Shown one piece after another: positions 1,880-44,185 of a stretch of DNA of 64,000 bases. The stretch lies in NCBI GenBank assembly GCA_026014805.1, contig JAOZHR010000016.1, positions 27,283-91,282 of the forward strand, given 5' to 3'. The notes beneath the pieces were generated by a model. That model did not search any database and was not told where the DNA came from. It saw nothing but the letters and a program-made list of their open reading frames with translations. Within the stretch, counting starts at the first letter, position 1. Every line of letters begins with the position of its first letter. The DNA comes from Candidatus Bathyarchaeota archaeon (GTDB lineage Archaea > Thermoproteota > Bathyarchaeia > Bathyarchaeales > SOJC01). Made by a program: the position numbers and the translations under genes.

Positions 1880-2920
1880 TCAAATATATTCCCATTCAAT
1901 TACTTCATCGCCTTTGATGTTTTTTCTCGCTATTCTTCCAATTACTAATTCTAAGAATTTAGGAGAAATCCCTGTTCCAGGTCTTTTGAAAGTTAGCATA
2001 TTCCTAGTAATCTCTGCCCCTTTTGGAATGCCTTTCCGGGCAACAATGCTTCTCCGGGCATATTTCCTTGCAGGCAACTCAACATCTAATGGCTTCTTTC
2101 CCTCCTCCCCCAGAATTTTTTCTAACAGCCTCATATTCTCGACTAAGGTTCCCAAGTCATGAAAATCCATTGCATGATAATGATCGTTGTCTTCAAGAGA
2201 TTTGTCAAGAGTGAAATGCTTTTCAAGAACCTTTGCACCCAACAAAGCTGCAGTAGTTAACGTTAGCATGCTTCTATCTGGCAATGTATGATCAGAATAG
2301 CCCACCAAGTAGGTTGGGAAGGCTTTTCTAAGGTGTGTAATCATGTTTAGGTTAGCGTCTTCGTATCTTGTGGGATAACTTAAAACACAATGTAAAATCA
2401 CTATTTGTTCGTTTCCTTCTACCTCTATAGCGTTCAGGGCATCCTCAATCTCCCCAATTGTTGAAGCACCAGTTGATAAAAAAATCGGTTTTTTTTTCCG
2501 GGCAATATGTTTTATAAATGGTGTATTTGTGATGTCTGAAGAAGAAATTTTAAATGCAGGAACGAGTTCATCGAGGAAGTCAACAGCATCAAAATCAAAA
2601 GGTGTAGACATAAAAATTATGTGTTTATCCTTAGCGTATTCAGCGAGTTCACGAAATTCCTCCTCGGCGAACTTGTCATATTTTTTGAAATAGGCATATT
2701 GGCTTCTTTTAGTTTTCCAATAGGCGGGTGAAATCCTCGATGCAATTTTCTCAGCTTTGTATGTTTGGAATTTTATGGCGTCTGCACCTGCAGATGCCGC
2801 TTCATTGATCAATTTCTTGGCGAGTCCCATATCGTTCTCATAATTAACCCCAGCCTCAGCTACGATAAATGGACCACTTCTCTCATCAAGTATTTTATTT
2901 CTGACTTTAATTCGTTTCAA
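1880..2920 (-). CDS. neuB: Nonulosonic acid synthase, NeuB/PseI/LegI family
   Basis: N-terminal signature GPFIVAEAGVNYENDMGLAKKLINEAASAGADAIKFQTY. C-terminal SAF-like segment RRSIVARKGIPKGAEITRNMLTFKRPGTGISP. Confidence 0.85.
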   Translation of the reverse strand: MKRIKVRNKILDERSGPFIVAEAGVNYENDMGLAKKLINEAASAGADAIKFQTYKAEKIASRISPAYWKTKRSQYAYFKKYDKFAEEEFRELAEYAKDKHIIFMSTPFDFDAVDFLDELVPAFKISSSDITNTPFIKHIARKKKPIFLSTGASTIGEIEDALNAIEVEGNEQIVILHCVLSYPTRYEDANLNMITHLRKAFPTYLVGYSDHTLPDRSMLTLTTAALLGAKVLEKHFTLDKSLEDNDHYHAMDFHDLGTLVENMRLLEKILGEEGKKPLDVELPARKYARRSIVARKGIPKGAEITRNMLTFKRPGTGISPKFLELVIGRIARKNIKGDEVIEWEYI

Positions 2921-4583
2921 ATTTTGATTCCCAATATTTGTTAAATATTAGTTTTATGCATCTATCAGTTACTTCTCTAAGGTTAAAGTTTTTCAAAGCT
3001 TCGCTCATCTTTCGACGTAATTCATAATTATTTATTATCCCTCTCAAAGCTAATGCAATGTCTTCTTCAGTGACCCTAGATTCAATTCCAAGATCTAAGA
3101 TTCCTTGGCAAGTGTGTGAAAATAAATGTCTTACTTCCCGCTCGTTTTGCGAGATGGATATGCATGGAACGCCCATTGCTGCCACTTCGTAAATCGTTCG
3201 CCCATTAGAGGTTAATACCAGGTCTGCTTCACTCATGATTTTTGCAATTATTTCCACGTTTTCTTTTACTTCAATATTGGAACCGTTTTTCTTTAAATTG
3301 TTGACATAGGTATATAGTTCATTTTTAAAATTATAGCCTAGACCCAAAATTATCAATAAAGCAATATTTTTTAAACTAAGTGTCTGAATTGCTTTGAGTG
3401 ATCTAAGAGTAAGATTATTTGGATCAGAACCGCCAAAAAGAATTAAGATTTTATTTGCCTCTTGGTTTGTGTCGTTAGGTGGAAATATGTGAAATTCGTC
3501 TCTCAAACATATGTATTTATATCCATAATAGCTGTTCTCTGGCGGTTCAGTTTTCTCATAGAGAGCATTGATAACGAGATCTGCCTGCTTAGAACCTCTA
3601 CCTAAATCCTCAAAATTAACTACAAAAAAAGCTCTTTCTTTCAATTTCGATATATAATCAGCGGGTGTGTCTAAAATATCGTTAATTACAATCTGGGGTG
3701 AAATTTTATCCAACTGCAGAAATACATCACGTTCATTTTCAATCATTATTATTGGGTAATTATACTCAGCTACTTTCTCTATGCCAAGCTTCTTAGTTTT
3801 ATCCATAAGAAAATATATATTCTGGTTGAACATTTGGCTTGCTAATGTTATGGCTCTATAGACATGCCCCAATCCAATGGAGTTATCACCGTCGACTCGA
3901 AAAACCACAGTTATTCTTCGCAACAAATTTTCTGCCACCCACCAATCTTGGTATTTGTCTATATCGATGCTTTCATTGAAGGGAAGTTCAAACAAGTAGA
4001 TATCATTGCCAATTCGATTTTTCTTAGTAATTACGTCTCTCCGCGATATGAATAAGGCCCCAGTCTCTTTGTATATTGGATCTAAAAATTGCCGGTTCCT
4101 CCTTTCTTTAAACAAGGGAAGAAGAATACCGTCCTTTTTCCTCCAATATAGGTGAGTTTCGTTTCTTACAGTAATCAAAGTTTCTCGTTTACTATTTTCA
4201 AATTCGACTATTGCTCTGTCCAAAGTCTCTTCTTTTAGAAGAGGAGAGGTGGGCTGCATCGAAATGATATAATCATACGTTAACCCCTTGTCCTTTTCAA
4301 TATGGGTCAGGGCATGATAAATAACAGGATCTAGAGGAACATCATCTCCAGCAAGTTCTATAGGCCTTTCAACTATGTTTGCACCATAAATTCCCGCTAT
4401 TTGCATGATCTTTTCATCCTCAGTAGAAACTATCACGTCATCGACGTAATTCGAATTCAAGGCTGTCTGTATGCTATAAGCGATTAAAGGTTTACCAGCT
4501 AACAATCGAACATTCTTACGTGGGATGCCCTTTGATCCTCCCCTCGCTGGTATCACTGCCAAGATTCTGTGGCGATTATACAT
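2907..4583 (-). CDS. Fusion protein: CMP-nonulosonate cytidylyltransferase (NeuA/PseF-like) N-domain plus PseG-like UDP-sugar hydrolase (GT28-type) C-domain
   Basis: N-terminal domain: ILAVIPARGGSKGIPRKNVRLLAGKPLIAYSI. C-terminal domain: VVFRVDGDNSIGLGHVYRAITLA, GYKYICLRDEF and ILFGGSDPNNLTL. These parallel the PseG motifs (RSDSSSQIGFGH.., ALIREEF, GGTD..NL). Confidence 0.8.
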   Translation of the reverse strand: MYNRHRILAVIPARGGSKGIPRKNVRLLAGKPLIAYSIQTALNSNYVDDVIVSTEDEKIMQIAGIYGANIVERPIELAGDDVPLDPVIYHALTHIEKDKGLTYDYIISMQPTSPLLKEETLDRAIVEFENSKRETLITVRNETHLYWRKKDGILLPLFKERRNRQFLDPIYKETGALFISRRDVITKKNRIGNDIYLFELPFNESIDIDKYQDWWVAENLLRRITVVFRVDGDNSIGLGHVYRAITLASQMFNQNIYFLMDKTKKLGIEKVAEYNYPIIMIENERDVFLQLDKISPQIVINDILDTPADYISKLKERAFFVVNFEDLGRGSKQADLVINALYEKTEPPENSYYGYKYICLRDEFHIFPPNDTNQEANKILILFGGSDPNNLTLRSLKAIQTLSLKNIALLIILGLGYNFKNELYTYVNNLKKNGSNIEVKENVEIIAKIMSEADLVLTSNGRTIYEVAAMGVPCISISQNEREVRHLFSHTCQGILDLGIESRVTEEDIALALRGIINNYELRRKMSEALKNFNLREVTDRCIKLIFNKYWESKFETN

Positions 4584-4601: not shown

Positions 4602-5324
4602 TTAATCTACGCATACTTTTCTATGCGCCGTCCGGTTGCGCGCACCGTATATGATGTCATCTTCTATATATACTCGAAATCCCTTCTCAATTAGTATGCG
4701 AGCGATTCCAGCAGATGTTTTCAGTCCGTTTCTTTGATGGTATGAAGCAACAACAATTTTGGATGTTCTCCTCAAGGTTTCTTTAGCTCCTTCTAACGCT
4801 TCAATCTCCGCCCCTTCTATGTCCATTTTGATAAAATCAACAAGAGGTAAACGCAAGTTCATTACAATGCTATCCAAGGTGTCTGCGTTCACCGTTATCT
4901 TACAGTTTGTTATGTGAGATTTATTTAACACCTTAACATCTCTAATTAGGCTATGCCCACTCGATGAGAGCCCTAAATACAGAAGCAATTTCCTTCTACA
5001 ATCCCAGACTGCTTTTTCCACAACCAAGACATTGCTCAGTTTTCGCAATCTAATATTATGAAGTAGACATCGCAAATTCTTTGGTTCAGGCTCAATCGCT
5101 ACAACTCTGCTTGCTCTTTTTGCAACCAAAATGGTGAACAAACCAATATGAGCTCCTACATCAATAACCACATCACCCTTCTGAACACGAAAGAACTTTT
5201 CATAATTATGGACTAAGCGAGGTATTTTATAACCCACAAGTTTGTCTTGAATCATGTAGCAATAACTTTTAAACAACTCGAAGGGGGTGTTGAGAGTTTT
5301 GAGTCTTCGTTTTATAGTGGTCAA
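4602..5324 (-). CDS. FkbM-family methyltransferase
   Basis: VIDVGAHIGLFTILVAKRASRVVAIEPEP and DFIKMDIEGAEIEAL. The start may be the internal Met (MIQDKL), because 5269-5324 overlaps the upstream ORF. Confidence 0.8.
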   Translation of the reverse strand: MTTIKRRLKTLNTPFELFKSYCYMIQDKLVGYKIPRLVHNYEKFFRVQKGDVVIDVGAHIGLFTILVAKRASRVVAIEPEPKNLRCLLHNIRLRKLSNVLVVEKAVWDCRRKLLLYLGLSSSGHSLIRDVKVLNKSHITNCKITVNADTLDSIVMNLRLPLVDFIKMDIEGAEIEALEGAKETLRRTSKIVVASYHQRNGLKTSAGIARILIEKGFRVYIEDDIIYGARNRTAHRKVCVD

Positions 5325-8300
5325 TTTCGATGTCTCTTAAAACTCGTTTATAGGGGTGTGCACAATTATTTTTATCTGTTGTTTTCACTGTTTTTCTAGG
5401 TGAGTTTGCCGGGACTGACCACATCGCACTATTCAGAGTCTTTTGGGGTTCCTTCTTTCGTTGTTTGATCGTTCGTTTTTTAAGTCGTTTCTCAGTTCTT
5501 CTTAAATGCAGATTCCAAGACAGCAGAAATATATTAAAAACTATTAACCACGCTATGGGTGAAAAAGTTTCTTTTAGGCTTTCCCATTCATTCCATTTAA
5601 CGGTTGGAGGATTAGTCGTGACAGGACCACTCCAAGTAAAGTTATCTGCGAAAGTGAAGATGTCTGACAAAGACGCATCGAACTCGATTGTACCATTGAT
5701 TTGCACGTCTTGACCGTATATGTCTGAACGTACCATTCTTTTTAACTTCTGAGTCAGTGATAGACCCCATGTATACGTCTCCTTGAACAAAGCTTCTCCA
5801 TCGACTAGGAAGTGCGGCTCCCTCATGTAAAATACGTGATCACCACTTATCGATAATTCTAAGTGTGATCCACAATCAACATTAATGTCGCTTCCATTAG
5901 AAAAACTCAGATAAAGAGTTATGTTGCTTCCTCCTACGGCTACTATTGATTGGTTAGTGCCCATCTGTGGGTAAAATCCCCTTCCTTGAAGTATTTTTAT
6001 GTAGGAACTGCGAATAGTAACATTTTTGCCGCCTTCAATCGAAACCGATGTGACATTTCTAAGCCGCTCATGCGAGTCGTCAGATGTGATGCTCAATGTT
6101 ACAGGATTCATTTCCGATGGAAAGATGATGGAAGAGGATTTAGCTTCAACTATACCCTCTAAAACGGCTTCCTTAAAAATCCATGTGTTGCTGTAAACAA
6201 TCCATTGAGTCTTTCCATTATGTTTAGGAAGATCTAGACCGATAGTATCTAATAGGTTTTGAAAAACAGAAAAAAACTTTTGGCCAGAAACTTCGTTCGA
6301 AAGTAACGTTTCAATCAATGGATAAATATTCACATAGATAATCTCTTTTCCATTAATGGGTGTTTTGGCTGCAAGTGGAATCAATCCTTCATCTGATATA
6401 TACCAACTCAGCGCTTCAACACCTTGGTTTACATCTAATGGAGTAACTTCAATATCAGCTGGCAGCGTTAACTCCAAATTTCTCCCAATGATTTTTGATG
6501 CGTTTACTTTCTTAATGGGAAATTCAAACTTCAATCTTACCTGAGATAATCCAGAAGACTTTGAGTCTCTACCATCTTCAGGAGGCATTTTCAGCAATAT
6601 ATTGATTCGGTAGGAGCTACCACTTCTTTCCGCAGTTACCATTCCTGCACTCGAGTTGTAGAATAGGTCGCTTCTTACGCCATCAATAGAATACACTGTA
6701 TCTATCAAGGCTTTCCCTGAGCCATTAGGTAATGTGATCGGTACATAAGCGGAACCATTGAAAATGAATAATTTTGCATCGTATTCATCATCTAAGTTGC
6801 CACATATTATTGCTTCAATGTTGGACCACCTACCCACGTCAAACTCAATCTCGTCTAGATACCATATTCCAGAGCTCGCGCAACTCTCTGTTATTCCGAT
6901 TAGTATTCTCGTGATCTTGCTCCATTGCGGATTGCCACTAAGACTTTTTGCAAACGTTAGATTGCTCATGACATATTCTCCAAAAGGGATTTTCATCGGC
7001 AAGATTACTTTTTTCCAGCCTTTCCAGCTATCTTTGAAAACGTACCAATAATAACCTTCGTCGGATAAGGCTTGAAAATAATAGTTCTTTCCATCACCAT
7101 ACCCATACCAATTGAAGATAAAGAAGTCATATGTGGACCAATTTTGAGGTGTACTGTAGACGTGTTCTATCGCCCACTTTTTATATGGTCCGTCTGCCAC
7201 ACCAATCTTCAACCCGTTGAGACCTTTGGCTTTGATGGATAAACTATCTGTCAGTTGCGGAGTGTCTACACCGCCATGCTCGTCCGCAGACCCGTGTACA
7301 TAAGGATTCCAGAACATGGATTGATTGTCGCCAACCATTGTAAAAGAGTGATCTGCATCATTATCAATAATGAACTCAACACTGCCATCTATGTTGGAAA
7401 CATTGAATTTTGTTAACGCTGTTGAGTAGTCATGAATTTGATGCAAGTATGAATCAGTTGAATTGTTCGTTAATGATATCTCGTTTACTGAATTAAACAG
7501 AGTGTTTGCTATTTGGTTATGATCATCCATATTAAGAATGATAATTTTCTCTACTGGGTTGTTCTCTAAGAAGTTTAGGATACCATCTATTGATTTCGTT
7601 TCCCACGCATTAGAAGGAACTATGATTATTTTGCTGTCTATACTTCTATCCGAATCAAGTAACACAGTGTAGTTGTATCGACCTGAGAATAACATATCAT
7701 AAGCAAAATAATAGTTGTCCGTTGTAGGGGTAGTAGGGATAATAAGAGTAACGTCACTTTTTGAGACTGGAGGGGCGCCTTCCATTCTGTAAATCTTCAC
7801 CTCAGAATTATTGTAGACTACTGTGGAATACTTAAGCAAGTGCTGAGCAAGATATCCGTTAGCATATTTCCTTTGCAGAATTTCAAGGTCTCTCTCGTGC
7901 ATATATACATATGATGGCAGAAATTCTGGATGATACAAAATTGTTAACGTTTCTTCAGGATACTTCGCGTCAAATAAAGAGTTCAGTTTAGGAGGAGAAT
8001 AGATCGTTGTCAAATCCAAATGGTCTATTGAGCCACCAGGAGCTGCATAAACAAAAGTAGGATGTTGCCTTGAACCTTGTGGATGCTCTTCAACAAGATA
8101 ATTCAAGGCACCCATTTCTTCTTCATCTAAGATCCAGCCAGATTCACTATTGACGTTTGCACGATATTTCCAATACTCCATAGTTAGAAAGGTCGAAGTA
8201 ATCCCGCTAATCGTTATGAGCCCAAGCAAAAATACAGAACAAATGATTTTCATGTTCCTAAAGTACATTAGCCTCTTTACTTTAGGTGACGAAACTCGAT

Positions 8301-10143
8301 TCCATATTTCAAGTAATGCCACCGGAGCCATCATCGAACAGGCAGAGAAAAGGAGCGGAAACAATCGCCTTTCCCAATAACCTGTTATAAAGAAGGCTGA
8401 GTTTGCAAAAGACACTATTCTAGAAAACGCTAGTGTTGAAGCTGCAAAGAAGATGAATACAGTTACTGCCTGATTTCTATAACTTTTAGCAATAACACCT
8501 ATTCCTATCAAGGCAAATAATCCGTTGATCCCTAAAAGAGTTGGATAAAGTAACAGCGGAATATTGTAAATAGGCGAAACGTCATACACGAAGAAATCAA
8601 TAGAAAAGAACCATGTAACCAAAAGTCCTATGAATAAGAATGATGAAAAAAACAAGAACGATTTGATGTGACCTAGTTTAACCGTTATGGAAACTCCTTT
8701 CCAACCACGGGATGTCAAAAGATACAAGAATGAAGTTAATCCAATCAGGCCCAGTGCATAAAATTGGGCTAATGAAAATCCTTGTTGAACGGCTAGATTA
8801 ATGGTTAGAGTTGTTAGTAATGCGACCACAAGTCCGATTGTAGTTGAGAGCAATGTATCATCCAAACGTAATCCAATTCTTGGCGCAAACATTGCCACAA
8901 CTGTCAATATAATTATAAAGATGACTAAGTATGGAAAGTAACTAAAAAAAAGGGTAACTATCAGGATGGATAAGATAGATATGTACGCCTTTCTACGCAC
9001 TCGATTTTCGCTCAGCAAATATAAAAGTGCAAAAAGAAAAACAATGCCCAATGTTTCAGCTCTGAATCGCCCCCAAACACCAATCCCACCATTTCGGCTT
9101 ATGTCCCAATAGGTCTTGAACATGGTGTCACTAAGGATGTCAAATTCAGGCAAGTCAAGGTTTATCAATTTTTCCTTGAGGAAATAAACCCACCCAAACC
9201 CAGAGAATGTTGAGAAAAGGAAAGTAGCCAATACTGGAAGTCTTTTATCTATTCCGTTGAGATACTTCTTTGCAGTAACAAAAAAGGAAAGAAGTACAAA
9301 AATGCCCAAATATGCTATTGACACCTGAAAGCTAGACATAGATGCGAATGACAAATCGTTAGAATTGAAAGACAACAAGTAGACAACCCCTAGACTGTGA
9401 TCAAACCACAAATAATTACTATTCTCGCTTATTGAACGTGCGGCCACAAAATGATCATAGGGATCAAGCCCTGGATCCAGACCCACTTCAGGGTAGATAA
9501 TCATGACATTAAATACAAATAGCCAAGAAATCAAAGCTAGAATCAATATGTCAACTAGCTTAAAAGTAGAAATGAAAGGACCATCATTTTTCTTTGAGGT
9601 TCTTTTGCTAATAAACTGATTCTTAGCAAATGACATAAAGGATAATAAAAAGTAACAAAAGCTGAGAATTAAAGCTATTTGCGATCGTTGTTCCACAACA
9701 AGAAATAGAACGGTGGAAAGTAGACCTGTTAGAAATATGCTTAAGGTGAAGGAGAAAACCGCAATCACCATAAATGAACCTTGGTTTCTAGGCTTTATCA
9801 AACGCAAAAGGACATAGCCTGGCATTATTAAGGAAACAATAATTGAGAAAATGCAGCTAAATTGAGTATAAAATTGAAAAGCGTTTGTTAAAAGAACGAA
9901 AAGGGCTACTATTACAAAAGAGCAATCAATATATAGATGTATCTTATGTGGCAATACCATTCTTACCTCTGTATTTGTAGACAACAACAAATAAATCAGA
10001 ATAACTGCTAAAATCTGAAAAACAAATAGGAAATATCTCATCCAGTGCTCTAACAGCAATAAAGTAGGTAAGGAACATAGAAAGGCAAAGAACAGCATAA
10101 AAGAATTTTTGCTAACATTCATTTTTCTCAAGTACCATTTCAA
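5269..10143 (-). CDS. Giant (1624 aa) polytopic membrane protein with a GT-C/STT3-like membrane core, an ectodomain of about 870 aa and a C-terminal TM anchor
   Basis: Uninterrupted 4.9-kb ORF. Roughly 15 or more hydrophobic helices lie in aa 1-654. A loop reads LDPGLDPYDHF (nt 9448-9465) and a helix reads FRAETLGIVFLFALLYL (nt 9043-9066). The ectodomain carries 19 N-X-S/T sequons by my count. A final TM, PIAWLIVFNIFLLSWNLHL, is followed by a basic tail. Confidence 0.8.
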   Translation of the reverse strand: MKWYLRKMNVSKNSFMLFFAFLCSLPTLLLLEHWMRYFLFVFQILAVILIYLLLSTNTEVRMVLPHKIHLYIDCSFVIVALFVLLTNAFQFYTQFSCIFSIIVSLIMPGYVLLRLIKPRNQGSFMVIAVFSFTLSIFLTGLLSTVLFLVVEQRSQIALILSFCYFLLSFMSFAKNQFISKRTSKKNDGPFISTFKLVDILILALISWLFVFNVMIIYPEVGLDPGLDPYDHFVAARSISENSNYLWFDHSLGVVYLLSFNSNDLSFASMSSFQVSIAYLGIFVLLSFFVTAKKYLNGIDKRLPVLATFLFSTFSGFGWVYFLKEKLINLDLPEFDILSDTMFKTYWDISRNGGIGVWGRFRAETLGIVFLFALLYLLSENRVRRKAYISILSILIVTLFFSYFPYLVIFIIILTVVAMFAPRIGLRLDDTLLSTTIGLVVALLTTLTINLAVQQGFSLAQFYALGLIGLTSFLYLLTSRGWKGVSITVKLGHIKSFLFFSSFLFIGLLVTWFFSIDFFVYDVSPIYNIPLLLYPTLLGINGLFALIGIGVIAKSYRNQAVTVFIFFAASTLAFSRIVSFANSAFFITGYWERRLFPLLFSACSMMAPVALLEIWNRVSSPKVKRLMYFRNMKIICSVFLLGLITISGITSTFLTMEYWKYRANVNSESGWILDEEEMGALNYLVEEHPQGSRQHPTFVYAAPGGSIDHLDLTTIYSPPKLNSLFDAKYPEETLTILYHPEFLPSYVYMHERDLEILQRKYANGYLAQHLLKYSTVVYNNSEVKIYRMEGAPPVSKSDVTLIIPTTPTTDNYYFAYDMLFSGRYNYTVLLDSDRSIDSKIIIVPSNAWETKSIDGILNFLENNPVEKIIILNMDDHNQIANTLFNSVNEISLTNNSTDSYLHQIHDYSTALTKFNVSNIDGSVEFIIDNDADHSFTMVGDNQSMFWNPYVHGSADEHGGVDTPQLTDSLSIKAKGLNGLKIGVADGPYKKWAIEHVYSTPQNWSTYDFFIFNWYGYGDGKNYYFQALSDEGYYWYVFKDSWKGWKKVILPMKIPFGEYVMSNLTFAKSLSGNPQWSKITRILIGITESCASSGIWYLDEIEFDVGRWSNIEAIICGNLDDEYDAKLFIFNGSAYVPITLPNGSGKALIDTVYSIDGVRSDLFYNSSAGMVTAERSGSSYRINILLKMPPEDGRDSKSSGLSQVRLKFEFPIKKVNASKIIGRNLELTLPADIEVTPLDVNQGVEALSWYISDEGLIPLAAKTPINGKEIIYVNIYPLIETLLSNEVSGQKFFSVFQNLLDTIGLDLPKHNGKTQWIVYSNTWIFKEAVLEGIVEAKSSSIIFPSEMNPVTLSITSDDSHERLRNVTSVSIEGGKNVTIRSSYIKILQGRGFYPQMGTNQSIVAVGGSNITLYLSFSNGSDINVDCGSHLELSISGDHVFYMREPHFLVDGEALFKETYTWGLSLTQKLKRMVRSDIYGQDVQINGTIEFDASLSDIFTFADNFTWSGPVTTNPPTVKWNEWESLKETFSPIAWLIVFNIFLLSWNLHLRRTEKRLKKRTIKQRKKEPQKTLNSAMWSVPANSPRKTVKTTDKNNCAHPYKRVLRDIEIDHYKTKTQNSQHPLRVV

Positions 10144-11191
10144 ATTCTTTTTCCCATTGCTTAACTATTATTTCCCAATCAAATTTCTCACCGTGTTCCC
10201 TAGCTTTTATTCCCATTTCACGTCTAAGGGCACAATCGCCCATCAAAATCTCTAACTTATCCATCATCTCCTCGATATTCCCAACAATGAAGCCAGTCTC
10301 GCCGTCGATAACAGTTTCAGGTTTATAATCATTAAAAACAATAGTTGGCAATCCAGTTGCAGCTGCCTCAATTGTAACCTTAGGGAAGCCTTCACGAACA
10401 GATGGAAAAAGAAAAATATCTGCCTTTTGCATCAAAGAAACAAGTTCATTTAGCGGCAAATGCCCATGAATACGCACGTTTTTGAGGTTAAATCTTTCTT
10501 TCATGTTTAACAACATTCCTTGCAGAGGACCTGATCCAACCAAGTCAAAATCCATATTTCGAAAACGCTTTGCAGCCTCAAGAACTAGAAAGGGTCTCTT
10601 TCTTTGCTGGAACGATCCTACATACAAAACGTCAAGTCTGTCCTTTTTTCTTCTCGGCAGGTAAACGAAAATCTTGGTATTGACACCAGTATAAATGACG
10701 GGTGTTTTTATATTATAATTCCTTTTCACGGTCTCTGCAACATACTTACTATTACTGTAGACGTAATCGCATTTGTATAAATTCGATCGCTCTATAAACT
10801 CAGCACACGTGCTTCGGTTTAGACCAGTTACTATATTCTCAACACTGTAAATGTTAACCTTTTTATCTCCTAATAGCTTTCTGAATGTTAAATATATGTA
10901 ACCATTGAGAAACCTTGGAAAGAAAAATAGGTCGCCTTTTTCAAAAAAACGCCGTAGTTCAGACAGGAAAGTTATAAATCTTATTGGTCTTCCGTGTAAG
11001 TTACGTGCTCTGATGCAACGAACATTCTTTTTAGTTAGAAGCTTTCTATCAGGCTTAGCCAAATAAAGTAAAGTAACATTAAACCGGGAAGAGTCAAGCC
11101 TTCTGGCCATCTCACGCGCGTTGAGGTTTTGGGCGTTATAATTATCTTCGTCGCAATAAGCTTGCATAAAGAGGCGTATCTTTTTCGTCAT
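10112..11191 (-). CDS. Glycosyltransferase family 4 (GT-B)
   Basis: C-terminal EX7E-type signature ADIFLFPSVREGFPKVTIEAAATGLPTIV. Confidence 0.85.
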   Translation of the reverse strand: MTKKIRLFMQAYCDEDNYNAQNLNAREMARRLDSSRFNVTLLYLAKPDRKLLTKKNVRCIRARNLHGRPIRFITFLSELRRFFEKGDLFFFPRFLNGYIYLTFRKLLGDKKVNIYSVENIVTGLNRSTCAEFIERSNLYKCDYVYSNSKYVAETVKRNYNIKTPVIYTGVNTKIFVYLPRRKKDRLDVLYVGSFQQRKRPFLVLEAAKRFRNMDFDLVGSGPLQGMLLNMKERFNLKNVRIHGHLPLNELVSLMQKADIFLFPSVREGFPKVTIEAAATGLPTIVFNDYKPETVIDGETGFIVGNIEEMMDKLEILMGDCALRREMGIKAREHGEKFDWEIIVKQWEKEFEMVLEKNEC

Positions 11192-18833: not shown

Positions 18834-19997
18834 CTACCGTTTTAAAATCTTTTTCAGAAGCTTTGGCCTGTACTTATCTACGGCTTCATCAACTCGCTCC
18901 TTTGTAACTTCCAACTCGTCAAAAGTCCTCATCAACGAAGGAATCCTAGGAGCGTTATGCGAAAGACACCTCTTTAACGCTTCACCTCTGGAAAGTTGTC
19001 CTTCCCGAACAAGCTTGCTGTAATGTTCATCGAATTCCGTGAATCCAACTAGCCTATAATACAGATAATCAATCAGCGGATACATAGAGTCGTCTACCCT
19101 CCAAGTGGCTGTTGTATCAGACGCTCCTTCCCAACCTAATTCTCTGCGTACGGTTGACACGACTTCCTTTTCGTTCCAGTATATGTAGTCGTAGAAGCCT
19201 AATGGAGCAATTCCCTTTGGCTTAGAAATTGACTCAAAAAGGTAGACGTACATACCTTTCACATATTCCTTAAATACAGACCAGCGAAGATTACGCCAAT
19301 TCCTTACATATTCGAGTCCAAGAAGGACTGACAACTTAACCTTGCCATACTTGGAATACATCCCCCGCTCGTCTGGGAAAACTCCCAAAAACCCCGTCTT
19401 GAAATGTTCTTGCTCAAAACAGCTATTACCTACATTGTTTCCTCCCAAAACCAAATGTATTCCGTTTTCCTTTGCATGTCTGTATATCCGAAGGTTCATC
19501 GTCTTATCACCAGCGTTCAACACAGGAACTATTGTGTTAATTGAAGGCTTCTTGAGCCACGCATGAAACTTTATCTTCGTGTTCTTCTTTGCTGTTTTAA
19601 TCTGATTTTCATCTTTCAACCACACGTGATCCACATCCAACGCGCGTGTAGCTTTCTCTATGTTTCGATAACCTTCCGGTCTAATAGCGCCGCTATCAAC
19701 TGTCAAAGCAAGAACCCTCATCTTGTATTTCTTGACTATTTGATGCAGAACGAAGGAACTGTCCCGTCCGCCGCTTATCGGAACAAGACAATCATATTTC
19801 TCTCCTGCGTTTCTGTACGCGTCTAAAACTGTGCATAATGCCTCTTCTCCATAAACCTCAACCGGCTCATAATCTAAGCAGTAGTTGCATACACCATCCT
19901 CGTCAAATTCTATTCCTGGAAACGTTTCAGGCAAAATACACTTTGTGCACCTTATCATATCACTGAAAGTCTCTTCGAAGCCCACTGGGTCAACCAT
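18834..19997 (-). CDS. N-acetyl sugar amidotransferase (PP-loop ATPase; WbuX/LfnA/AglX/PseA type)
   Basis: N-terminal Cys cluster CTKCILPETFPGIEFDEDGVCNYC and PP-loop LVPISGGRDSS. The ORF track starts at 20033. The Met at 19997 avoids overlap with the upstream gene. Confidence 0.8.
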   Translation of the reverse strand: MVDPVGFEETFSDMIRCTKCILPETFPGIEFDEDGVCNYCLDYEPVEVYGEEALCTVLDAYRNAGEKYDCLVPISGGRDSSFVLHQIVKKYKMRVLALTVDSGAIRPEGYRNIEKATRALDVDHVWLKDENQIKTAKKNTKIKFHAWLKKPSINTIVPVLNAGDKTMNLRIYRHAKENGIHLVLGGNNVGNSCFEQEHFKTGFLGVFPDERGMYSKYGKVKLSVLLGLEYVRNWRNLRWSVFKEYVKGMYVYLFESISKPKGIAPLGFYDYIYWNEKEVVSTVRRELGWEGASDTTATWRVDDSMYPLIDYLYYRLVGFTEFDEHYSKLVREGQLSRGEALKRCLSHNAPRIPSLMRTFDELEVTKERVDEAVDKYRPKLLKKILKR

Positions 19998-20020
19998 CTG
20001 GATGCCAACTCCAAGGCTTT

Positions 20021-21016
20021 TCAATTCACACACCTCCCAATGTTATCCCAGTTCTCGCGGAACCAACCCAAAGTCTTCTCCAAACCATCACTAATTTTAG
20101 TTCTAGGCTCATAGCCCAGAATTTTTCTAGCCTTTTCTATAGAAGCTCTTCTTTTCACTACCTTGTCCCAGTTTCTTTTAGGTCCTAAAACTGTTCCAGC
20201 CTCGTTTCCCGTAAGCTCGTTAATCCAATTCGCTAAGTCGATTACTCTTGTCTCAGTTTCAGAGGCTAAGTTGATAGCTTCACCCGCCGCTTCATTAATC
20301 GTCCCCAACCTAAGCGTTCCATCAACAATATCATCAACAAAAGTGAAGTCTCTAGTCTCCTCACCAGTTCCTGTGATTGGCAAGACCTTCTTATTTAGAG
20401 CCAACCAAGTAAAATTAGGTATCACGTTCCTGTACCTGCCCGGCACCTCTCCAGGTCCATAAACATTGAAATACCGCGCGATTGCCACCGGAAGCCCATA
20501 ATAGTTGTGGAAATAGTAGCAGTAGAGCTCTCCAAGCAATTTGTGAATCTGATATGGCGTGTCAAGATGAAGTGAAACAAAATCTTCCTTTAGCGGCAGC
20601 GGGGCTTGACTGCCATAAACTGAACAGCCAGAGGACGCAAACACAAATTTTTCTACGCCAACGAGATTTGAATATTGAAGCACCTTTAAAGTGCCTTGCC
20701 CGTTAACGAGCAAGTCTGTTTCAGGGTGATCCACAGAATTTTGATTTGCAAAATGGGCCGCTAGGTGAAAAACGTATTGTGGCTTCGCGGAAAAGGCATG
20801 TTTCAAATGTTCTTCGTTCAAGATGCTTCCATGAATGAACACAAGCTTGGGATGATTCGGCAAATTCCACCTATACGAAGCTGAAAGATCATCCAAGACA
20901 ACAATTTTTTCAGCATTCGCGTCAATCAACCTTCGAACCAAATTACTTCCGATACACCCAGAGCCACCAGTAATCAATACACATTTTCCTTCATAATGGC
21001 TCATAAAAGACTCCAT
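20021..21016 (-). CDS. NAD-dependent epimerase/dehydratase (extended SDR)
   Basis: VLITGGSGCIGSNLVRRL and a YxxxK (PYQIHKLLGE). Confidence 0.8.
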   Translation of the reverse strand: MESFMSHYEGKCVLITGGSGCIGSNLVRRLIDANAEKIVVLDDLSASYRWNLPNHPKLVFIHGSILNEEHLKHAFSAKPQYVFHLAAHFANQNSVDHPETDLLVNGQGTLKVLQYSNLVGVEKFVFASSGCSVYGSQAPLPLKEDFVSLHLDTPYQIHKLLGELYCYYFHNYYGLPVAIARYFNVYGPGEVPGRYRNVIPNFTWLALNKKVLPITGTGEETRDFTFVDDIVDGTLRLGTINEAAGEAINLASETETRVIDLANWINELTGNEAGTVLGPKRNWDKVVKRRASIEKARKILGYEPRTKISDGLEKTLGWFRENWDNIGRCVN

Positions 21017-23027: not shown

Positions 23028-23359
23028 TCTTGACAGCCTTCCTTCTTAATCCTTCGACACTTGAAAATCACCGTTCCCCCACGCGTGTAAGGCTCGCCAG
23101 GATCAACGCATTGAATATACGCGTGCTCTCTATCTCCAGGCTTCGACAACCCCAACCCAACAGGATCGTCACCTCTCTCCAGCACCAACACATAATGCAA
23201 CAGCGAAGAAAGCGCGTGCACACACAAAGCATCAGTCTTTCCCAAAACTATCTCAGGATCATCAATCACTATTTTATCGCCAACCTTATGCACAGGACAG
23301 TAGCCACGTATCTCGCAAACCTCTATTTCCAGCACCAAGTCACTCTTCACGCTTTGCAT
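23024..23359 (-). CDS. Small Cys/His-rich protein, TIGR04076-like
   Basis: Pattern CEIRGYCPVHKVGDKIVI...DALCVHALSSLLHYV...IQCVDPGEPYTRGGTVIFKCRRI. The likely start is MQSVKSD at 23359. There is a 4-nt overlap with wecB. Confidence 0.45.
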   Translation of the reverse strand: MQSVKSDLVLEIEVCEIRGYCPVHKVGDKIVIDDPEIVLGKTDALCVHALSSLLHYVLVLERGDDPVGLGLSKPGDREHAYIQCVDPGEPYTRGGTVIFKCRRIKKEGCQE

Positions 23360-24314
23360 TAGTTTTTTCTGCAAGCCGCAAAATAGCATACAGCGTAATT
23401 GCAGTGGACAAGGCAAAGAACCCCATTAACATGAAGGTCATTGAAGCCAACGCTATGTTCGTAACTATTTGACGTCCTACGGAGTAGATTTGCAGCATCC
23501 AAATCCCAAAAAACATGCCTATTGCCAATAAGATGATACCAGGTACTCCAAGGAAAACTAGAGGCCTTTCCTCTACAATCAACCTTACAAGAGACCATAC
23601 AACACTTGCCCCATGCCTAAATGGATTTTGCGTCGATGTCTTCTCTACACCCGAATAATTACATTCAAGCGGAACCTCCACAAGGCGTAACCCTTGCTCC
23701 TTGGCTTTGAACAAAACCTCAACACTCACACCCATCCCATTTTCAAGAAGCAACAACTTTTCCAAAGCAGCCCTACTGTACGCCCGACAACCATTCTGAG
23801 CATCAGTGATGACGCACTTCGAGGCAGCAGTAGTCAGCTTGGTAATCGCCTTTATGCCCACCCGCCTGTAAAACGGAAGCCCATTGCCACCGTTCTTCTG
23901 CATCCCATCTAAAAACCTAGATCCTATAACCACGTCTGCCTTATCGTCAAGGATTGGTTGAATCAACAACGAGGTTTTACTAACATCATGTTGTCCATCA
24001 CCGTCAAGCGTCACCAAAATGTCCGCACTTAACCTTTTTGTTTCCTTAAACAACGACTGCACAGCAGCCCCATATCCCTTGTTAACATCATGCCTAACAA
24101 CAATAGCTCCAAGCCGCTCAGCAATCTCACCGGTCGAATCTGAAGATCCATCATCACAAACCACGACAACATCTGCATACTTCTGAGCGTCCAAAACCAC
24201 CCGCGCAATACTTCTCTCCTCATTATACGCCGGAATACCAATAGCAATCAAAGGCTTCTCAACCAACACCGCGCCTTTTTCAAATTCACCCTTGACTTCT
24301 TCCACAGTCACCAA
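23340..24314 (-). CDS. GT2 glycosyltransferase, dolichyl-phosphate hexose synthase-like (AglD/DPM1/GtrB type)
   Basis: IAIGIPAYNEERSIARVV, VVVCDDGSSDSTGEIA and VTLDGDGQHD, plus two C-terminal TM helices. Confidence 0.75.
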   Translation of the reverse strand: MVTVEEVKGEFEKGAVLVEKPLIAIGIPAYNEERSIARVVLDAQKYADVVVVCDDGSSDSTGEIAERLGAIVVRHDVNKGYGAAVQSLFKETKRLSADILVTLDGDGQHDVSKTSLLIQPILDDKADVVIGSRFLDGMQKNGGNGLPFYRRVGIKAITKLTTAASKCVITDAQNGCRAYSRAALEKLLLLENGMGVSVEVLFKAKEQGLRLVEVPLECNYSGVEKTSTQNPFRHGASVVWSLVRLIVEERPLVFLGVPGIILLAIGMFFGIWMLQIYSVGRQIVTNIALASMTFMLMGFFALSTAITLYAILRLAEKTNAKREE

Positions 24315-24320
24315 TAGCTT

Positions 24321-25982
24321 CTAACCCCCGTACTCATAAACCGAAATCCTACCAGCGCTAAAAACCTCCTCAAAGCCTTGAGGAACCTTGAAACCATACC
24401 AGCCAATGTCAGTATTCCACCACACAAGCCAAAAACGACCATAACCACGTTCAGCCGCCAAACTAACTGCACCGAAAACATCGTTCTTAAAGAACACAAT
24501 AGTATGCTGTTCATCCAGAGAAAATCTAGCCCAATAGAAGAGTGCATCATGAGCCAAAAAACAAGAACTACCATCCATCGTTACATCTACCCATCGAAAC
24601 GCCTCAACCGTACCATCCACATCGCTTAAAGGAACAGCATTAGAGAGCATAGTTGAAGGCAAATAGTTCACTGTAGTGGGAAGACCGAAAACTCCACCCC
24701 TCCCGAATAATGTTGGCGAAGTCATAAAAACGAAGCCGCAAACCACAGAAGCCAACACCAACCCCTTAGCCACTCTCTTCGAAACCTTCAACGAACCAAA
24801 ATGACGAAACGACACAGCAACAGGCTTAACCGAGTGCAAAACCCTCACAAAGCCATTAGCCGCATAATAAGTCAACGGAAACACCAACATAAGCATCAAC
24901 CTGTTCCACAAGTCCAAAGCAAAAAAGGGCAGTACCAAGCAGCCGAAGGCTCCTACGCAAAGCAGAATCATCCAAGCGTCCACCGCCGGATGTCTGAAAA
25001 AACCCACAATTGCAAGAGGAAGAATCGCGACGTACAATAACGCAAACAGCGAAGCAACAGAGGCTGCCAAATCAAGATAAGTTGGATAGTACTGAACAGT
25101 GTCAACTACGCTAAGATAGTTTGTAAAGAAACGCAGCAGCCCAGAATAATGTCCCTGACTCTGAAAGACCCTCAAAACATTCGACTGGACAACGGAGTAC
25201 CTCGGAGAAATTATTGGAAAAACACTTACGACGAAGACCCCCGCAGCTGGCAAAGTGGCCGCGAGAACCTTCAGAGCCGTACGACCTCTCGCTCTAAGCA
25301 GATGTGAAGCCGCAACACCTAAGACAGACACAAACAACAGCACTGAGCCGTACTCGTGGCTAAAAACAACTAAAACCGATAAGACGCTAAATAACGCCAA
25401 GCTTTTCAAGTCAAGTTTATCCTTCAAAATCCAAGGCAGCGTGAAAAGCAAAACTCCTAACCCCAACATGTTCCTGTAAAAATGCCACGAAATCCCAAGA
25501 ATAGCAACTTGAAACGAAAACAGCCCCGCCGCAAACAAGCTTTTCCTTGCTGACCAGTTAAAAGCCTTGGTCGCCAAATAATATACTCCACACACATTTA
25601 ACCCAAAAAGCAGCGGCATAGCTATCTTTAGCAGAAGAAACGGCTCAACCCTCAACAAACTATACCCAGACACCAACAAAGCATACAGAAGCCAACCACT
25701 GAAAACTCCGCTCCAATGAGCCCACACAACCCCCTCCTCAATCCTCCAAGCATAATAAATCGTGTCAAAGCCAATCGGATACGGATAAGACAGCAGCTCC
25801 GGAATCGCCCTAACGGCCACCCCAAATGCAAACGCCATCAACAACCCAGTTCTCACCGAAGGACGAAAAGCGGAAAGCCAATTCTCAACCCTTATCACAA
25901 CAAAACTCCCATTCTTGCTACTGATCTCAAGATGCAAAAGACCGAAGACCCTGCTCAGTTTTCTCCAATTGCGTGAAGCCAT
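24321..25982 (-). CDS. Polytopic membrane protein, GT-C-like (candidate Dol-P-sugar-dependent glycosyltransferase)
   Basis: 553 aa with at least 10 hydrophobic helices. An early loop reads YPYPIGFDTIYYAWRIEEG. The start is uncertain: the annotated ATG overlaps the upstream gene by 56 nt, and in-frame TTG/GTG codons lie further in. Confidence 0.55.
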   Translation of the reverse strand: MASRNWRKLSRVFGLLHLEISSKNGSFVVIRVENWLSAFRPSVRTGLLMAFAFGVAVRAIPELLSYPYPIGFDTIYYAWRIEEGVVWAHWSGVFSGWLLYALLVSGYSLLRVEPFLLLKIAMPLLFGLNVCGVYYLATKAFNWSARKSLFAAGLFSFQVAILGISWHFYRNMLGLGVLLFTLPWILKDKLDLKSLALFSVLSVLVVFSHEYGSVLLFVSVLGVAASHLLRARGRTALKVLAATLPAAGVFVVSVFPIISPRYSVVQSNVLRVFQSQGHYSGLLRFFTNYLSVVDTVQYYPTYLDLAASVASLFALLYVAILPLAIVGFFRHPAVDAWMILLCVGAFGCLVLPFFALDLWNRLMLMLVFPLTYYAANGFVRVLHSVKPVAVSFRHFGSLKVSKRVAKGLVLASVVCGFVFMTSPTLFGRGGVFGLPTTVNYLPSTMLSNAVPLSDVDGTVEAFRWVDVTMDGSSCFLAHDALFYWARFSLDEQHTIVFFKNDVFGAVSLAAERGYGRFWLVWWNTDIGWYGFKVPQGFEEVFSAGRISVYEYGG

Positions 25983-42010: not shown

Positions 42011-44185
42011 TTGGACCTTAGAAATTTGATATCACGAGAAAAAATAGTGGACGCTCTACATAGTCTATCAAACTTAAGAATCCCTGTTTCTCGTTCCACT
42101 TTGCTCACAATTTCAGCATTAACGTTAATTTTCTTTGTCGCCTTCTCTATAAGACTGTTCCCTATCCGTTGGGGGCTCGAACTCTCAGAATTCGACCCGT
42201 ACTTTCAATATCAGTTTACAGAAAAAATAGTGAAAGACGGATACTTCGACTGGGTTACGTGGAAAACGTCTGAAGCCAATCGATGGTATCCTCTTGAAGT
42301 ATCGGTCGGGCGCGCAGCTTTTCCTGGTCTTCCTCTAACCGCTGCAACCCTGTACAACATACTCTCTATCTTGGGGGTGCCCATATCCCTATACCACTTT
42401 TGCATAATATTTCCAGTTATTTTTGGGGCGTTGGCGTGTTTAATAGCGTTTTTCTTAGGAAGCGATGTTGGAGGCAAGACTGTAGGTCTTTTCTCTGCCT
42501 TCTTCCTCGCATTGAATTCATCCCATATTACAAGAACATCTATAGGATTTTTCGATGATGAAACCGTTGGAATAGGGGCTATTCTCCTTTTCGCGTTTTT
42601 GTTTCTCAGAGCCTTAGATGAAAAACGCCCCAAAAAACACTCTGCACTTTATGCCGTCACAGCTGGTTTGACGCTTGGTTATGTAACCGCCTCATGGGGA
42701 GCAGCACTCTACCCAATAGCGATGGCAACTCTCTTTGTATTTACCCTGATTTTGCTTAAGCGTTACACACGTCGCTTGCTTATTTCATACAGCATAACAT
42801 TCGGCCTTGGCTTATTTCTAGCAATTAATGTCCCTAAGAACTCCATTAGTTACCTCACTACATGGGCGATTCTGCCAGTGCTAGGCATCTTCGGTTTGCT
42901 ATGTCTTAATGAAGTGTTAAACGCCATAAGCAGCAGAAAATGGAAAATTATCTTAACTGCAGTTTTCTTTGCAACGATGATTGGTGGGTTCCTAATCCTG
43001 TCATATCTGGGGTATATGGGTTCGATTGCAGGAAAGTTTATCGGTGTCATAAATCCGACGCAGCGAGGGGCATCGCAAATATATCAATCAGTTCAAGAGC
43101 ACAGACTTACAGCATGGGGTTCTCTGTACTATGACTACGGTGTTGGCGTGCTCTTTTTCGTGTTAGGCTTGTTCTTTGCAATAAGAGACCTAACTAATAG
43201 AAACCTTTTCTTTGTTATCTTCGGCTTAACGGCATTATACTTCGCTTCTTCTATGGTTCGATTAACCATATTGTTAGCGCCCGCATTCTGCCTTCTGATG
43301 GCAATCGGAATAGTGAACTTGTTGAAACCATTCATAACCATAATGAAAGAGACGCCAAAACTAGCCCTAGGCAAAAGATATATCACAGGACATGTTGGAA
43401 AGGAATTCAGCGGATCGGTTCTCATCCTCATATTCTTGCTTTTAACACTAACCTATGCCTTTCCTTCGCCGAGAATGTATACCCATTCATACTCACCACC
43501 TACAATACTTTCCGCAAGCACCCCAATACGACCATCAGAGCCAATTACTGAGTGGACTGAGATGCTTGAATGGATGAAACTTAACCTTCCAGAAAAAGCA
43601 ATTGTCTGCAGCTGGTGGGACTACGGATATTGGATATCAGTGAAGGGGAATCGAACATCTCTTGCAGATAATGCCACTTTCAACACTACACACATAGGAT
43701 TGATAGGCCAAGTTTTTATGTCCAATGAAACCCAAGCAGTAAAAATTCTAAAAGAGCGATTCAACGGGCCCGATGGACCCCCAACACACATTCTTGTCTT
43801 CACGACATTCAACAGTCTAGGAGGCGACGGTAATTATGGTGACGAGGGAAAATGGCGATGGATGGCTAGAATTGCCAACCAAAGTGTAGCTCCTGGCTTC
43901 TATTGGGAGTCAGAAGACGAACGATCCAATACTTTCGGAAACATAACGGAGGAGGGACAGTGGGTTTGGAATGATGTGGGAAAAAACACAACAATTTACA
44001 AGTTGATGGAAACAGCAAAGTACTCTTTAGGTGGTGCTCCCGAAGAAGCACCTGACCTAGAATTCTTCAAAGTCTCCCACTTCTCGCCTGGAAACCCAAT
44101 AGCATCCCTTGGAACTTACGAAGAACAAACCGTGTACCTTTTCGCGTTGGTTGCTCTTTATGAAGTGAATTACCCCGCTGCTTGA
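42011..44185 (+). CDS. aglB: Archaeal oligosaccharyltransferase AglB (STT3 family)
   Basis: EFDPYFQYQ in the first loop, GFFDDETVG, and the catalytic WWDYGYWI motif. Confidence 0.9.
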   Translation: MDLRNLISREKIVDALHSLSNLRIPVSRSTLLTISALTLIFFVAFSIRLFPIRWGLELSEFDPYFQYQFTEKIVKDGYFDWVTWKTSEANRWYPLEVSVGRAAFPGLPLTAATLYNILSILGVPISLYHFCIIFPVIFGALACLIAFFLGSDVGGKTVGLFSAFFLALNSSHITRTSIGFFDDETVGIGAILLFAFLFLRALDEKRPKKHSALYAVTAGLTLGYVTASWGAALYPIAMATLFVFTLILLKRYTRRLLISYSITFGLGLFLAINVPKNSISYLTTWAILPVLGIFGLLCLNEVLNAISSRKWKIILTAVFFATMIGGFLILSYLGYMGSIAGKFIGVINPTQRGASQIYQSVQEHRLTAWGSLYYDYGVGVLFFVLGLFFAIRDLTNRNLFFVIFGLTALYFASSMVRLTILLAPAFCLLMAIGIVNLLKPFITIMKETPKLALGKRYITGHVGKEFSGSVLILIFLLLTLTYAFPSPRMYTHSYSPPTILSASTPIRPSEPITEWTEMLEWMKLNLPEKAIVCSWWDYGYWISVKGNRTSLADNATFNTTHIGLIGQVFMSNETQAVKILKERFNGPDGPPTHILVFTTFNSLGGDGNYGDEGKWRWMARIANQSVAPGFYWESEDERSNTFGNITEEGQWVWNDVGKNTTIYKLMETAKYSLGGAPEEAPDLEFFKVSHFSPGNPIASLGTYEEQTVYLFALVALYEVNYPAA

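Follow-up and report, generated by a model that had tools for sequence, protein, structure and literature searches.

A giant membrane protein encoded in a Bathyarchaeota glycan gene cluster as a candidate outer-face glycosyltransferase with a GT-C-like core

Archaeal surface glycans made outside AglB-dependent N-glycosylation are poorly understood, especially in uncultured Bathyarchaeia, ammonia-oxidising Nitrososphaerota and Asgard archaea. The question raised here is what is done by a giant membrane protein encoded among the glycan genes of one such organism. The gene lies in a stretch of 64,000 nucleotides (nt) of Candidatus Bathyarchaeota archaeon (assembly GCA_026014805.1, contig JAOZHR010000016.1, positions 27,283 to 91,282), referred to as the window, and coordinates below are window positions on the minus strand unless the plus strand is given. 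Its mechanical open reading frame (ORF), 5269..10143, is the longest in the window, with 1624 amino acids (aa) counted from a TTG codon, as stated in an earlier note written from the sequence alone. That note could assign no family to the whole protein, which it described as a GT-C/STT3-like membrane core without the WWDYG motif, joined to a sequon-rich ectodomain and a C-terminal anchor. Searches of Pfam, NCBIfam and PDB sequences likewise gave no match covering the protein, the lone one being a sub-threshold Pfam CBM_11 (carbohydrate-binding module, CBM) at aa 996-1050. On balance, the gene seems likely to encode an integral-membrane glycosyltransferase of the GT-C fold, belonging to an uncharacterised archaeal family and acting on the outer face of the membrane.

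The predicted fold is the first line of evidence. The AlphaFold2 (AF2) model of aa 8-900, built from 19 sequences, has a pLDDT of 79.6 and a pTM of 0.81, and its sole credible matches in the PDB, found by Foldseek, are GT-C enzymes. The best is chain I of entry 8b6l, which contains human STT3A (E 1.4e-4, probability 1.0, target-normalised template-modelling (TM) score 0.45), followed by mycobacterial AftA, 8if8 (E 2.8e-3, probability 1.0, target-normalised TM 0.43). According to the AftD paper, the hallmarks of GT-C enzymes include juxtamembrane helices after the first core helix, a broken third helix and a last helix running into an alpha/beta domain, and the model displays these. The core's first outer loop (aa 218-271; 9331..9492), recognised from the AF2 helices and the conservation of Asp227, holds two juxtamembrane helices (aa 227-237 and 245-258) after core helix 1; core helix 3 is interrupted at a conserved FSGFGW motif; and the last core helix extends into the alpha/beta domain. 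Both a GT-C likeness at the level of the fold and an acidic residue opening a long first outer loop were therefore found.

When the AF2 helices are read with the positive-inside rule, the polypeptide would start with six helices (aa 8-175; 9619..10122), a module supported by these helices and by conservation, which agrees with the roughly six helices placed by the earlier note ahead of the STT3-like part. This module carries the family motif (F/L)PGYVLLRL and an invariant Gly109. A cytoplasmic loop rich in lysine and arginine (K/R) would then lead to a GT-C-like core of 13 passes (aa 196-668; 8140..9558), supported by Foldseek, hhalign and topology, bringing the predicted passes before the ectodomain to 19. 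The count of 13 would require aa 384-419 to form a hairpin with an H-x-P-E motif at its outer turn; with it, every K/R-rich loop falls in the cytoplasm and the ectodomain outside.

So many passes could also suit a Wzy-type polymerase, an O-antigen-ligase-like protein, a transporter or a flippase for the cluster glycan, the more so as the Foldseek list contains many low-probability transporters and no recognisable Wzx or Wzy was found in the window. However, the transporters that make up the remaining Foldseek matches have a probability of at most 0.35 and a TM of about 0.1, WzxE has a probability of 0.10, and structures of Wzy, WaaL and SEDS proteins are absent from the top 50. Pfam gives no Wzy_C-type match on the giant protein, and the invariant polar residues cluster at the outer face rather than along a transport path. 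A membrane domain of this kind, whose discovery the earlier note had named as a reason to abandon its view, is thus considered very improbable.

The second line of evidence is the family itself. A word-indexed search found 19 homologues, and a profile of the membrane domain compared with 1.84 billion cluster representatives gave 777 homologue clusters (clusters at 50% identity) at E <= 1e-3, of which 360 reach E <= 1e-30; almost all of these matches are 1200-1500 aa long with a complete membrane domain, and a second word-indexed search, this time with the profile, brought few additional homologues. The possibility of an orphan protein was discarded in view of the 777 clusters. In a scan of species-representative genomes, members were found in Bathyarchaeia, Nitrosopumilaceae, Nitrosocosmicus, other Nitrososphaerota, Promethearchaeota and Thorarchaeota; the related-locus genome scan returned no relatives with the window protein alone as query, whereas a three-sequence alignment did find members. 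Literature searches produced no description of the family, and NCBIfam models compared with 37 diverse members gave no match. The family is unnamed, has no Pfam or NCBIfam profile, is annotated as 'hypothetical' and is spread over TACK and Asgard archaea.

Comparison with the homologues by BLAST delineates two conserved blocks (aa ~8-885 and aa ~1210-1560) flanking a variable insert (aa ~885-1210), and a 59%-identical homologue (P0002) aligns across aa 8-1547. The membrane domain occurs together with an ectodomain of at least 300 aa in 143 representatives (<=50% mutual identity) stemming from many samples and phyla, with a C-terminal hydrophobic helix in 119 of them. Since the two parts are joined in 143 representatives, the assembly fusion of two genes that the earlier note had also envisaged is excluded. 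Two features might still have pointed to an artefact of assembly or annotation, namely the different, shorter NCBI start and the overlap of the tail with the next ORF, but the conservation of the architecture leaves this explanation a negligible probability.

As to the start codon, the sequence from Met8 (MNVSKNSF...; ATG at 10122) aligns with the N-termini of homologues, which makes this ATG the likely start, and the gene then probably spans 5269..10122 with a product of 1617 aa. At its start, the gene shares 11 nt with the end of the upstream GT4 gene (10112-11191), whose stop the ATG overlaps. The identical NCBI protein, NWE91_03890 (P0001, from a Candidatus Bathyarchaeota metagenome-assembled genome (MAG)), has 1455 aa and begins at aa 170. 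Judged by the alignment, this call is too short and the database entry N-terminally truncated, because six helices conserved in the family (window 9636-10122) are lost from it.

Conservation, scored over 124 representatives at <= 50% mutual identity, singles out a small set of residues. Full conservation (100%) is seen for G109, D227, P529 and G538, followed by E591, R593 and G647 (98%; 122/124 for each of E591 and R593), H402 (96%), E405 (91%) and N581 (90%). Asp227 (codon 9463-9465), kept in 124/124, stands at the start of the first juxtamembrane helix and is proposed as the catalytic base. Glu591 and Arg593, in the triplet Glu591-Arg-Arg593 of the motif TGYWExR (8365..8373), are placed by topology where the penultimate core helix reaches the outer face and are proposed as active-site residues or as ligands of metal or phosphate. 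On the same topology, D227, E591 and R593 would all lie on the outer face.

Some of these positions recall AglB, the archaeal counterpart of STT3 also encoded in the window. The earlier note had drawn two parallels, and the segments it relied on do exist: LDPGLDPYDHF, at aa 222-232 and not at aa 226-232 as it had said, and GRFRAETLG at aa 358-366, to be compared with EFDPYFQYQ (aa 60) and GFFDDETVG (aa 179) of AglB. Their spacing is similar as well, with 136 aa in the giant protein versus 122 aa in AglB. The first parallel is supported by the invariance of Asp227; when only the N-terminal regions are compared, the best local alignment pairs D227 with D62 of AglB EFDPYF, a non-significant result (P 0.3) that serves as a consistency check only. 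The second parallel, R-A-E for D-D-E, fails for the family as a whole, as the family consensus at this site is R-P-x-T and Glu363 occurs solely in the window protein and its 59%-identical relative. A greedy extension of the hhalign alignment brings E591 onto the Glu of AglB SVQE, the counterpart of the TIXE/SVSE Glu in the fifth outer loop of such enzymes, with low confidence.

Comparison of whole profiles gives a weak signal. Local hhalign alignment of 124 family sequences with 120 AglB/STT3 sequences scored 43 (P 3.3e-4, 181 columns), above all 14 controls (2 reversed and 12 block-shuffled; scores 16-27, P >= 0.035), and together with the structural matches it upholds the core that the earlier note had called GT-C/STT3-like. 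A smaller comparison, of a 14-sequence family alignment with a single AglB sequence, gave no signal (probability 0.14). In that 14-sequence run T-Y-x-D-I-G-Y-G was paired with AglB WWDYGYW, a candidate dismissed as chance, since it sits in a mid-core loop and not past the last helix. Indeed, a regular-expression search for WWDYG over aa 640-900 was negative (the AglB motif lies at aa 535), nor does any WW, W[WYF]D or WWDYG-like string occur after the last helix, where FVYAAPGGSIDHL is found at aa 697; the claim that the motif is missing was right. As the STT3 profile PF02516 does not match it either, the giant protein is, by these sequence measures, not an STT3 family member.

The features that it shares with the STT3/AglB/PglB enzymes are the best structural match, a weak profile similarity that beats the controls, the invariant Asp in the first outer loop, the 13 core passes as counted here and an alpha/beta domain after the last helix. 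It differs from them in failing the STT3 hidden Markov model, in lacking the WWDYG, DK and MI motifs (neither DK nor MI was found in the giant protein), in having no recognisably conserved D-x-E second motif, in being about 900 aa longer and in coexisting with a genuine AglB elsewhere in the window (42011-44185, plus strand). One may ask, then, whether it is an STT3-derived oligosaccharyltransferase or ligase that works beside AglB, transferring the entire oligosaccharide encoded by the cluster en bloc from dolichyl-pyrophosphate to protein, either O-linked or at non-sequon sites of S-layer or surface proteins. The rank of STT3A in the structural search and the lone profile signal, which is for the AglB family, speak for it, as do the gene clusters, which are dominated by GT4 enzymes that build oligosaccharides, harbour in the five metagenome loci no further gene recognisable as a ligase or polymerase and have no AglB of their own within 10 kb (0/13 homologue loci). 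Against it stand the missing motifs, a proximal domain without significant similarity to the AglB C-terminal domain (probability 4%), an AftA match almost as good as that of STT3A and the carbohydrate-binding modules of the ectodomain, which point to a glycan acceptor. This explanation is regarded as unlikely, though worth keeping in mind.

The ectodomain gives the third line of evidence. Its AF2 model (aa 655-1575, pLDDT 80.7) contains, in this order, an alpha/beta domain, beta-sandwiches, three helices, a beta domain with long strands and the anchor helix. The membrane-proximal alpha/beta domain (aa 674-884; 7492..8124), delimited by AF2, lies within the first conserved block and has conserved Pro729, Glu730, Asp752 and Asp832 among the 143 representatives. 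The beta-sandwich region with a CBM11-like module (aa 888-1274; 6322..7482) corresponds roughly to the variable insert; the best Foldseek match of the ectodomain is CBM11 1v0a (E 6.8e-6, TM 0.67), other matches being CBM22, CBM27, CBM4 and CBM-like modules of GH50 agarases, and among the homologues some have CBM_11 (best E 4.4e-8) and others Laminin_G_3 (best E 2.7e-22) in the variable slot. For the C-terminal beta-rich domain (aa 1302-1511; 5611..6240), predicted by AF2 with long strands and situated inside the second conserved block, no structural match was found.

The chain would return to the membrane through a C-terminal transmembrane anchor (aa 1527-1547; 5503..5565), recognised by hydropathy and as an AF2 helix, and end in a cytoplasmic Lys/Arg-rich tail of 77 aa with 22 K/R (5272..5502), both as earlier described; the coding sequence of this tail runs into the beginning of the next ORF. 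Even the 59%-identical homologue does not share it, and the tails of other members normally count 6-30 aa. The number of Asn-X-Ser/Thr sequons is 20 in the whole protein and 19 in the ectodomain, the latter figure matching the earlier count, where composition predicts 9.9; the enrichment is 1.9-fold in the window protein and has a family median of 1.7-fold, in keeping with an ectodomain that is exposed and N-glycosylated.

In architecture, the enzyme that comes closest is AftD, comprising a GT-C membrane core, a soluble alpha/beta domain, three CBMs, a structural beta-sandwich and a membrane re-entry through one helix. The giant protein has the same layout of core, alpha/beta domain, beta-sandwich CBMs, beta domain and re-entry helix; in other words, a CBM beta-sandwich outside and a return to the membrane, as in enzymes of the AftD/Emb type, are both found. 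Within the AftD/Emb/AftA group, AftA provides the second-best structural match to the core, and by comparison with this group the acceptor would likely be a complex glycan. The giant protein has six extra N-terminal helices, 13 versus 11 core passes by count and one helix after the ectodomain versus five in AftD. It is also archaeal and without sequence similarity to AftD, and nothing in the data points to arabinose or to an acyl carrier protein as partner; no arabinosyltransferase family was matched in Pfam or PDB sequences, the Arabinose_trans and AftA Pfam models included.

A second parallel is found in three-component extracytoplasmic glycosylation systems, GtrABC-like ones and that of ORF12 of Citrobacter youngae, the founder of GT136, where the modification of a completed glycan outside the cell falls to a GT-C enzyme bearing a CBM at its C-terminus, which uses a polyprenyl-phosphate sugar made by a GT2-type synthase. 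In AftD and ORF12, both of the GT-C type, CBMs serve to hold the glycan acceptor, in ORF12 for a glycosylation that follows polymerisation. The cluster of the giant gene likewise contains a synthase of the GT2 type. The enzymes of these systems are, however, bacterial and much smaller, no dedicated small flippase is seen at the giant's locus, and the window synthase lies 13 kb from the giant gene, where it adjoins a different multi-pass protein (24321-25982).

A separate question is the activity of the window member itself. At aa 402-405 (8929..8940), the alignment of 124 shows Y-F-P-Y in the place of the family's H-x-(P/S)-E; residues 402 and 405 are both Tyr, and Tyr405 is unique among the 124. 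The protein might accordingly be a catalytically dead GT-C relative kept as a glycan-binding surface scaffold or envelope anchor, to which a very large, sequon-rich, CBM-bearing ectodomain and an unusually long cytoplasmic tail would be suited. Yet D227, N581, E591, R593 and the glycine/proline framework are retained, and the gene is still translationally coupled to the GT4 gene in a biosynthetic cluster. In addition, an acidic residue at 363/364 is present in 3/10 members without an acidic 405 versus 2/114 with one (Fisher 0.0035, although the cases amount to only some two or three independent events), two other members without Glu405 having Glu at the neighbouring 364; this hints that the acidic group was relocated, in a compensatory manner, rather than lost. 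An inactive window protein is thus held to be quite unlikely, and an active transferase is favoured over a scaffold or anchor; the evidence does not choose among the three functional options of the earlier note, that is to say a divergent GT-C transferase or polymerase for the glycan, a dead STT3 relative recruited as an anchor, or something new. As a separate observation, the window protein and its closest relative both lack the H-x-P-E residues (8929-8940) and alone carry R-A-E-T (9052-9066) in place of the family's R-P-x-T.

For an active outer-face transferase, the following course of events may be envisaged. Enzymes of the GT4 and GT2 types would build a glycan or sugar on a dolichyl-phosphate or dolichyl-pyrophosphate carrier in the cytoplasm, the pseudaminic/neuraminic-type sugar genes and the methyltransferases of the window cluster may decorate it, and the lipid-linked donor would be flipped outward. 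The 13-pass core would bind this donor at the membrane surface, with Asp227 as base and Glu591 and Arg593 as ligands of metal or phosphate, while the alpha/beta proximal domain would close the active site. The acceptor held by the CBM11-like beta-sandwiches would be a glycan, either a surface polysaccharide or one carried by a glycoprotein, and not an Asn-X-Ser/Thr peptide, and the C-terminal beta domain and the anchor helix would tether the ectodomain to the membrane, as in AftD. The ectodomain would itself probably be N-glycosylated by the separate AglB. This scheme starts from what the analysis shows directly, namely the ORF, its family, the conservation pattern, the gene context and the predicted fold with its matches; from them we infer what each residue does, which donor and acceptor are used and whether the window member is active.

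Several points weigh against an enzyme of this type. Neither the protein nor the family profiles have a recognised GT-C match in Pfam, NCBIfam or PDB sequences; the TM-scores to STT3A and AftA are modest (0.36-0.45, with a root-mean-square deviation of 12-17 Å); and the hhalign probability for AglB/STT3 is only 38%, which makes the profile signal alone suggestive, not conclusive. His402 and Glu405, kept by most of the family at the frequencies given above, are missing in the window protein, which could therefore be impaired. The place of the second motif is also ambiguous, because hhalign maps the AglB helix and D-D-E loop onto H402-x-P-E405, whereas helix counting from the start of the core favours the R-A-E site instead. 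Lastly, a flippase was not found in the window, and the assignment of donor and acceptor is purely inferential.

If the family does consist of outer-face transferases, the GT-C superfamily gains a family, the design of mycobacterial AftD, with a GT-C core, lectin modules and membrane re-entry, would exist in archaea too, and a handle would become available for predicting and engineering archaeal envelope glycans. A bolder idea, given rather low credence, is that the Wzx-type surface-glycan pathways of TACK and Asgard archaea, whose ligase or polymerase at the outer face is missing, have it in this family, which would be related to STT3 and have exchanged the sequon-reading WWDYG domain for lectin modules. 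Acceptors, either glycans or non-sequon proteins, would then receive or be extended by entire lipid-linked oligosaccharides, and envelope glycosylation in archaea would have a second branch beside AglB, not seen before.

The fold and the general mechanism are already known; what appears to be new is the combination of a weakly DUF1616-like N-terminal module of six helices with a GT-C core, lectin modules and a C-terminal anchor. Sub-threshold matches to DUF1616 (PF07760), a group of archaeal membrane proteins, recur on the N-terminal region of homologues, one with E 0.0018 and three further members with a best E of 0.0069; the profile does not match the window protein. In three members the beginning of the DUF1616 profile aligns with the stretch of the N-terminal module that surrounds the PGY motif, with homologue scores of 9.7-18 bits versus a cut-off of 31.6 and over the first third of the profile only. 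Haloferax volcanii HVO_2173 (DUF1616) is a multi-pass N-glycoprotein, and as DUF1616 is without known function, the match explains nothing yet. One family member also has a sub-threshold match (4.7e-4) to Pfam PTPS_related, which we take to be part of the GT-C clan.

Regarding gene context, the giant gene sits in a long co-directional cluster (~600-28300) with GT4 and GT2 glycosyltransferases, methyltransferases, a deacetylase and epimerases. Immediately upstream is the GT4 glycosyltransferase (10112..11191; Pfam Glycos_transf_1, E 2e-26). A GT2 of the polyprenyl-phosphate sugar synthase type (23340..24314), classified by PDB and NCBIfam comparison, has Pyrococcus dolichol-phosphate mannose synthase 5mlz as best PDB match (E 3e-13), followed by ArnC, and shows PpgS-, AglJ- and Dol-P-hexose-transferase-like NCBIfam matches, all below cut-off; it is a possible source of the lipid-linked donor.

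The cluster also comprises a NeuB/PseI-like synthase beside a PseF+PseG-like fusion (2907-4583 and 1880-2920 for the pair), both identified by NCBIfam matches below trusted cut-offs. The fusion is peculiar in that the PseF-like cytidylyltransferase and the PseG-like domain share a single 558-aa ORF, which the synthase adjoins. Farther upstream, a 399-aa ORF (18834-20033) resembles the N-acetyl sugar amidotransferase WbuX (NCBIfam E 3.8e-44, below cut-off; no Pfam match), which suggests an acetamidino-type sugar modification in the cluster.

Directly upstream of the GT2 gene lies a 553-aa multi-pass protein (24321-25982) with about 10 predicted passes and no Pfam, NCBIfam or PDB match, which has 'YPYPIGFDTIYY' just past its first helix. 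With hhalign it shows weak similarity to the giant's family (P 0.007, in a segment with an S-H-E motif; P 0.007 and 0.03 over the giant and AglB families, respectively). This protein and the GT2 look like a lipid-sugar synthase with a second, unrecognised outer-face transferase. Outside the cluster, the genuine AglB (PF02516, E 2.1e-36) matches eukaryotic STT3A almost over its full length (E 9e-85) and the solved euryarchaeal AglBs only in a short C-terminal region around WWDYG, a pattern indicating a eukaryote-like STT3.

The neighbourhood of homologues was surveyed at 13 loci (5 metagenome and 8 genome), and in all of them the gene lies within a glycan cluster. GT4 enzymes are the most constant neighbours of the family, accounting for 22/74 neighbour ORFs in the 8 genome loci and also flanking the homologue in the five metagenome loci; further neighbours are GT2 enzymes, epimerases/dehydratases, methyltransferases, Polysacc_synt flippases, DUF2079 proteins and a pyruvyl transferase. 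The earlier note had proposed to look for co-occurrence with pse/neu genes, and the outcome was negative, NeuB and PseF homologues being found, like AglB, at 0/13 loci; the pse/neu link is therefore specific to the window genome. In a Nitrososphaerota MAG (L012), two family paralogues of 1532 aa (L012:1770-6368, minus strand) and 1166 aa (L012:9878-13378, plus strand) stand about 3.5 kb apart in one glycan cluster, which fits enzymes of differing specificity better than a single structural anchor.

Two further observations concern these loci. Near the paralogue pair of L012, two multi-pass proteins of ~700 aa are themselves paralogous, with 42% mutual identity. In three Nitrososphaerota loci, a mostly soluble protein of ~650 aa is encoded convergently, just downstream of the family gene (L007:13616-15604, L009:13767-15734 and L013:7914-9848, all on the minus strand), and its three copies share 49-71% mutual identity.

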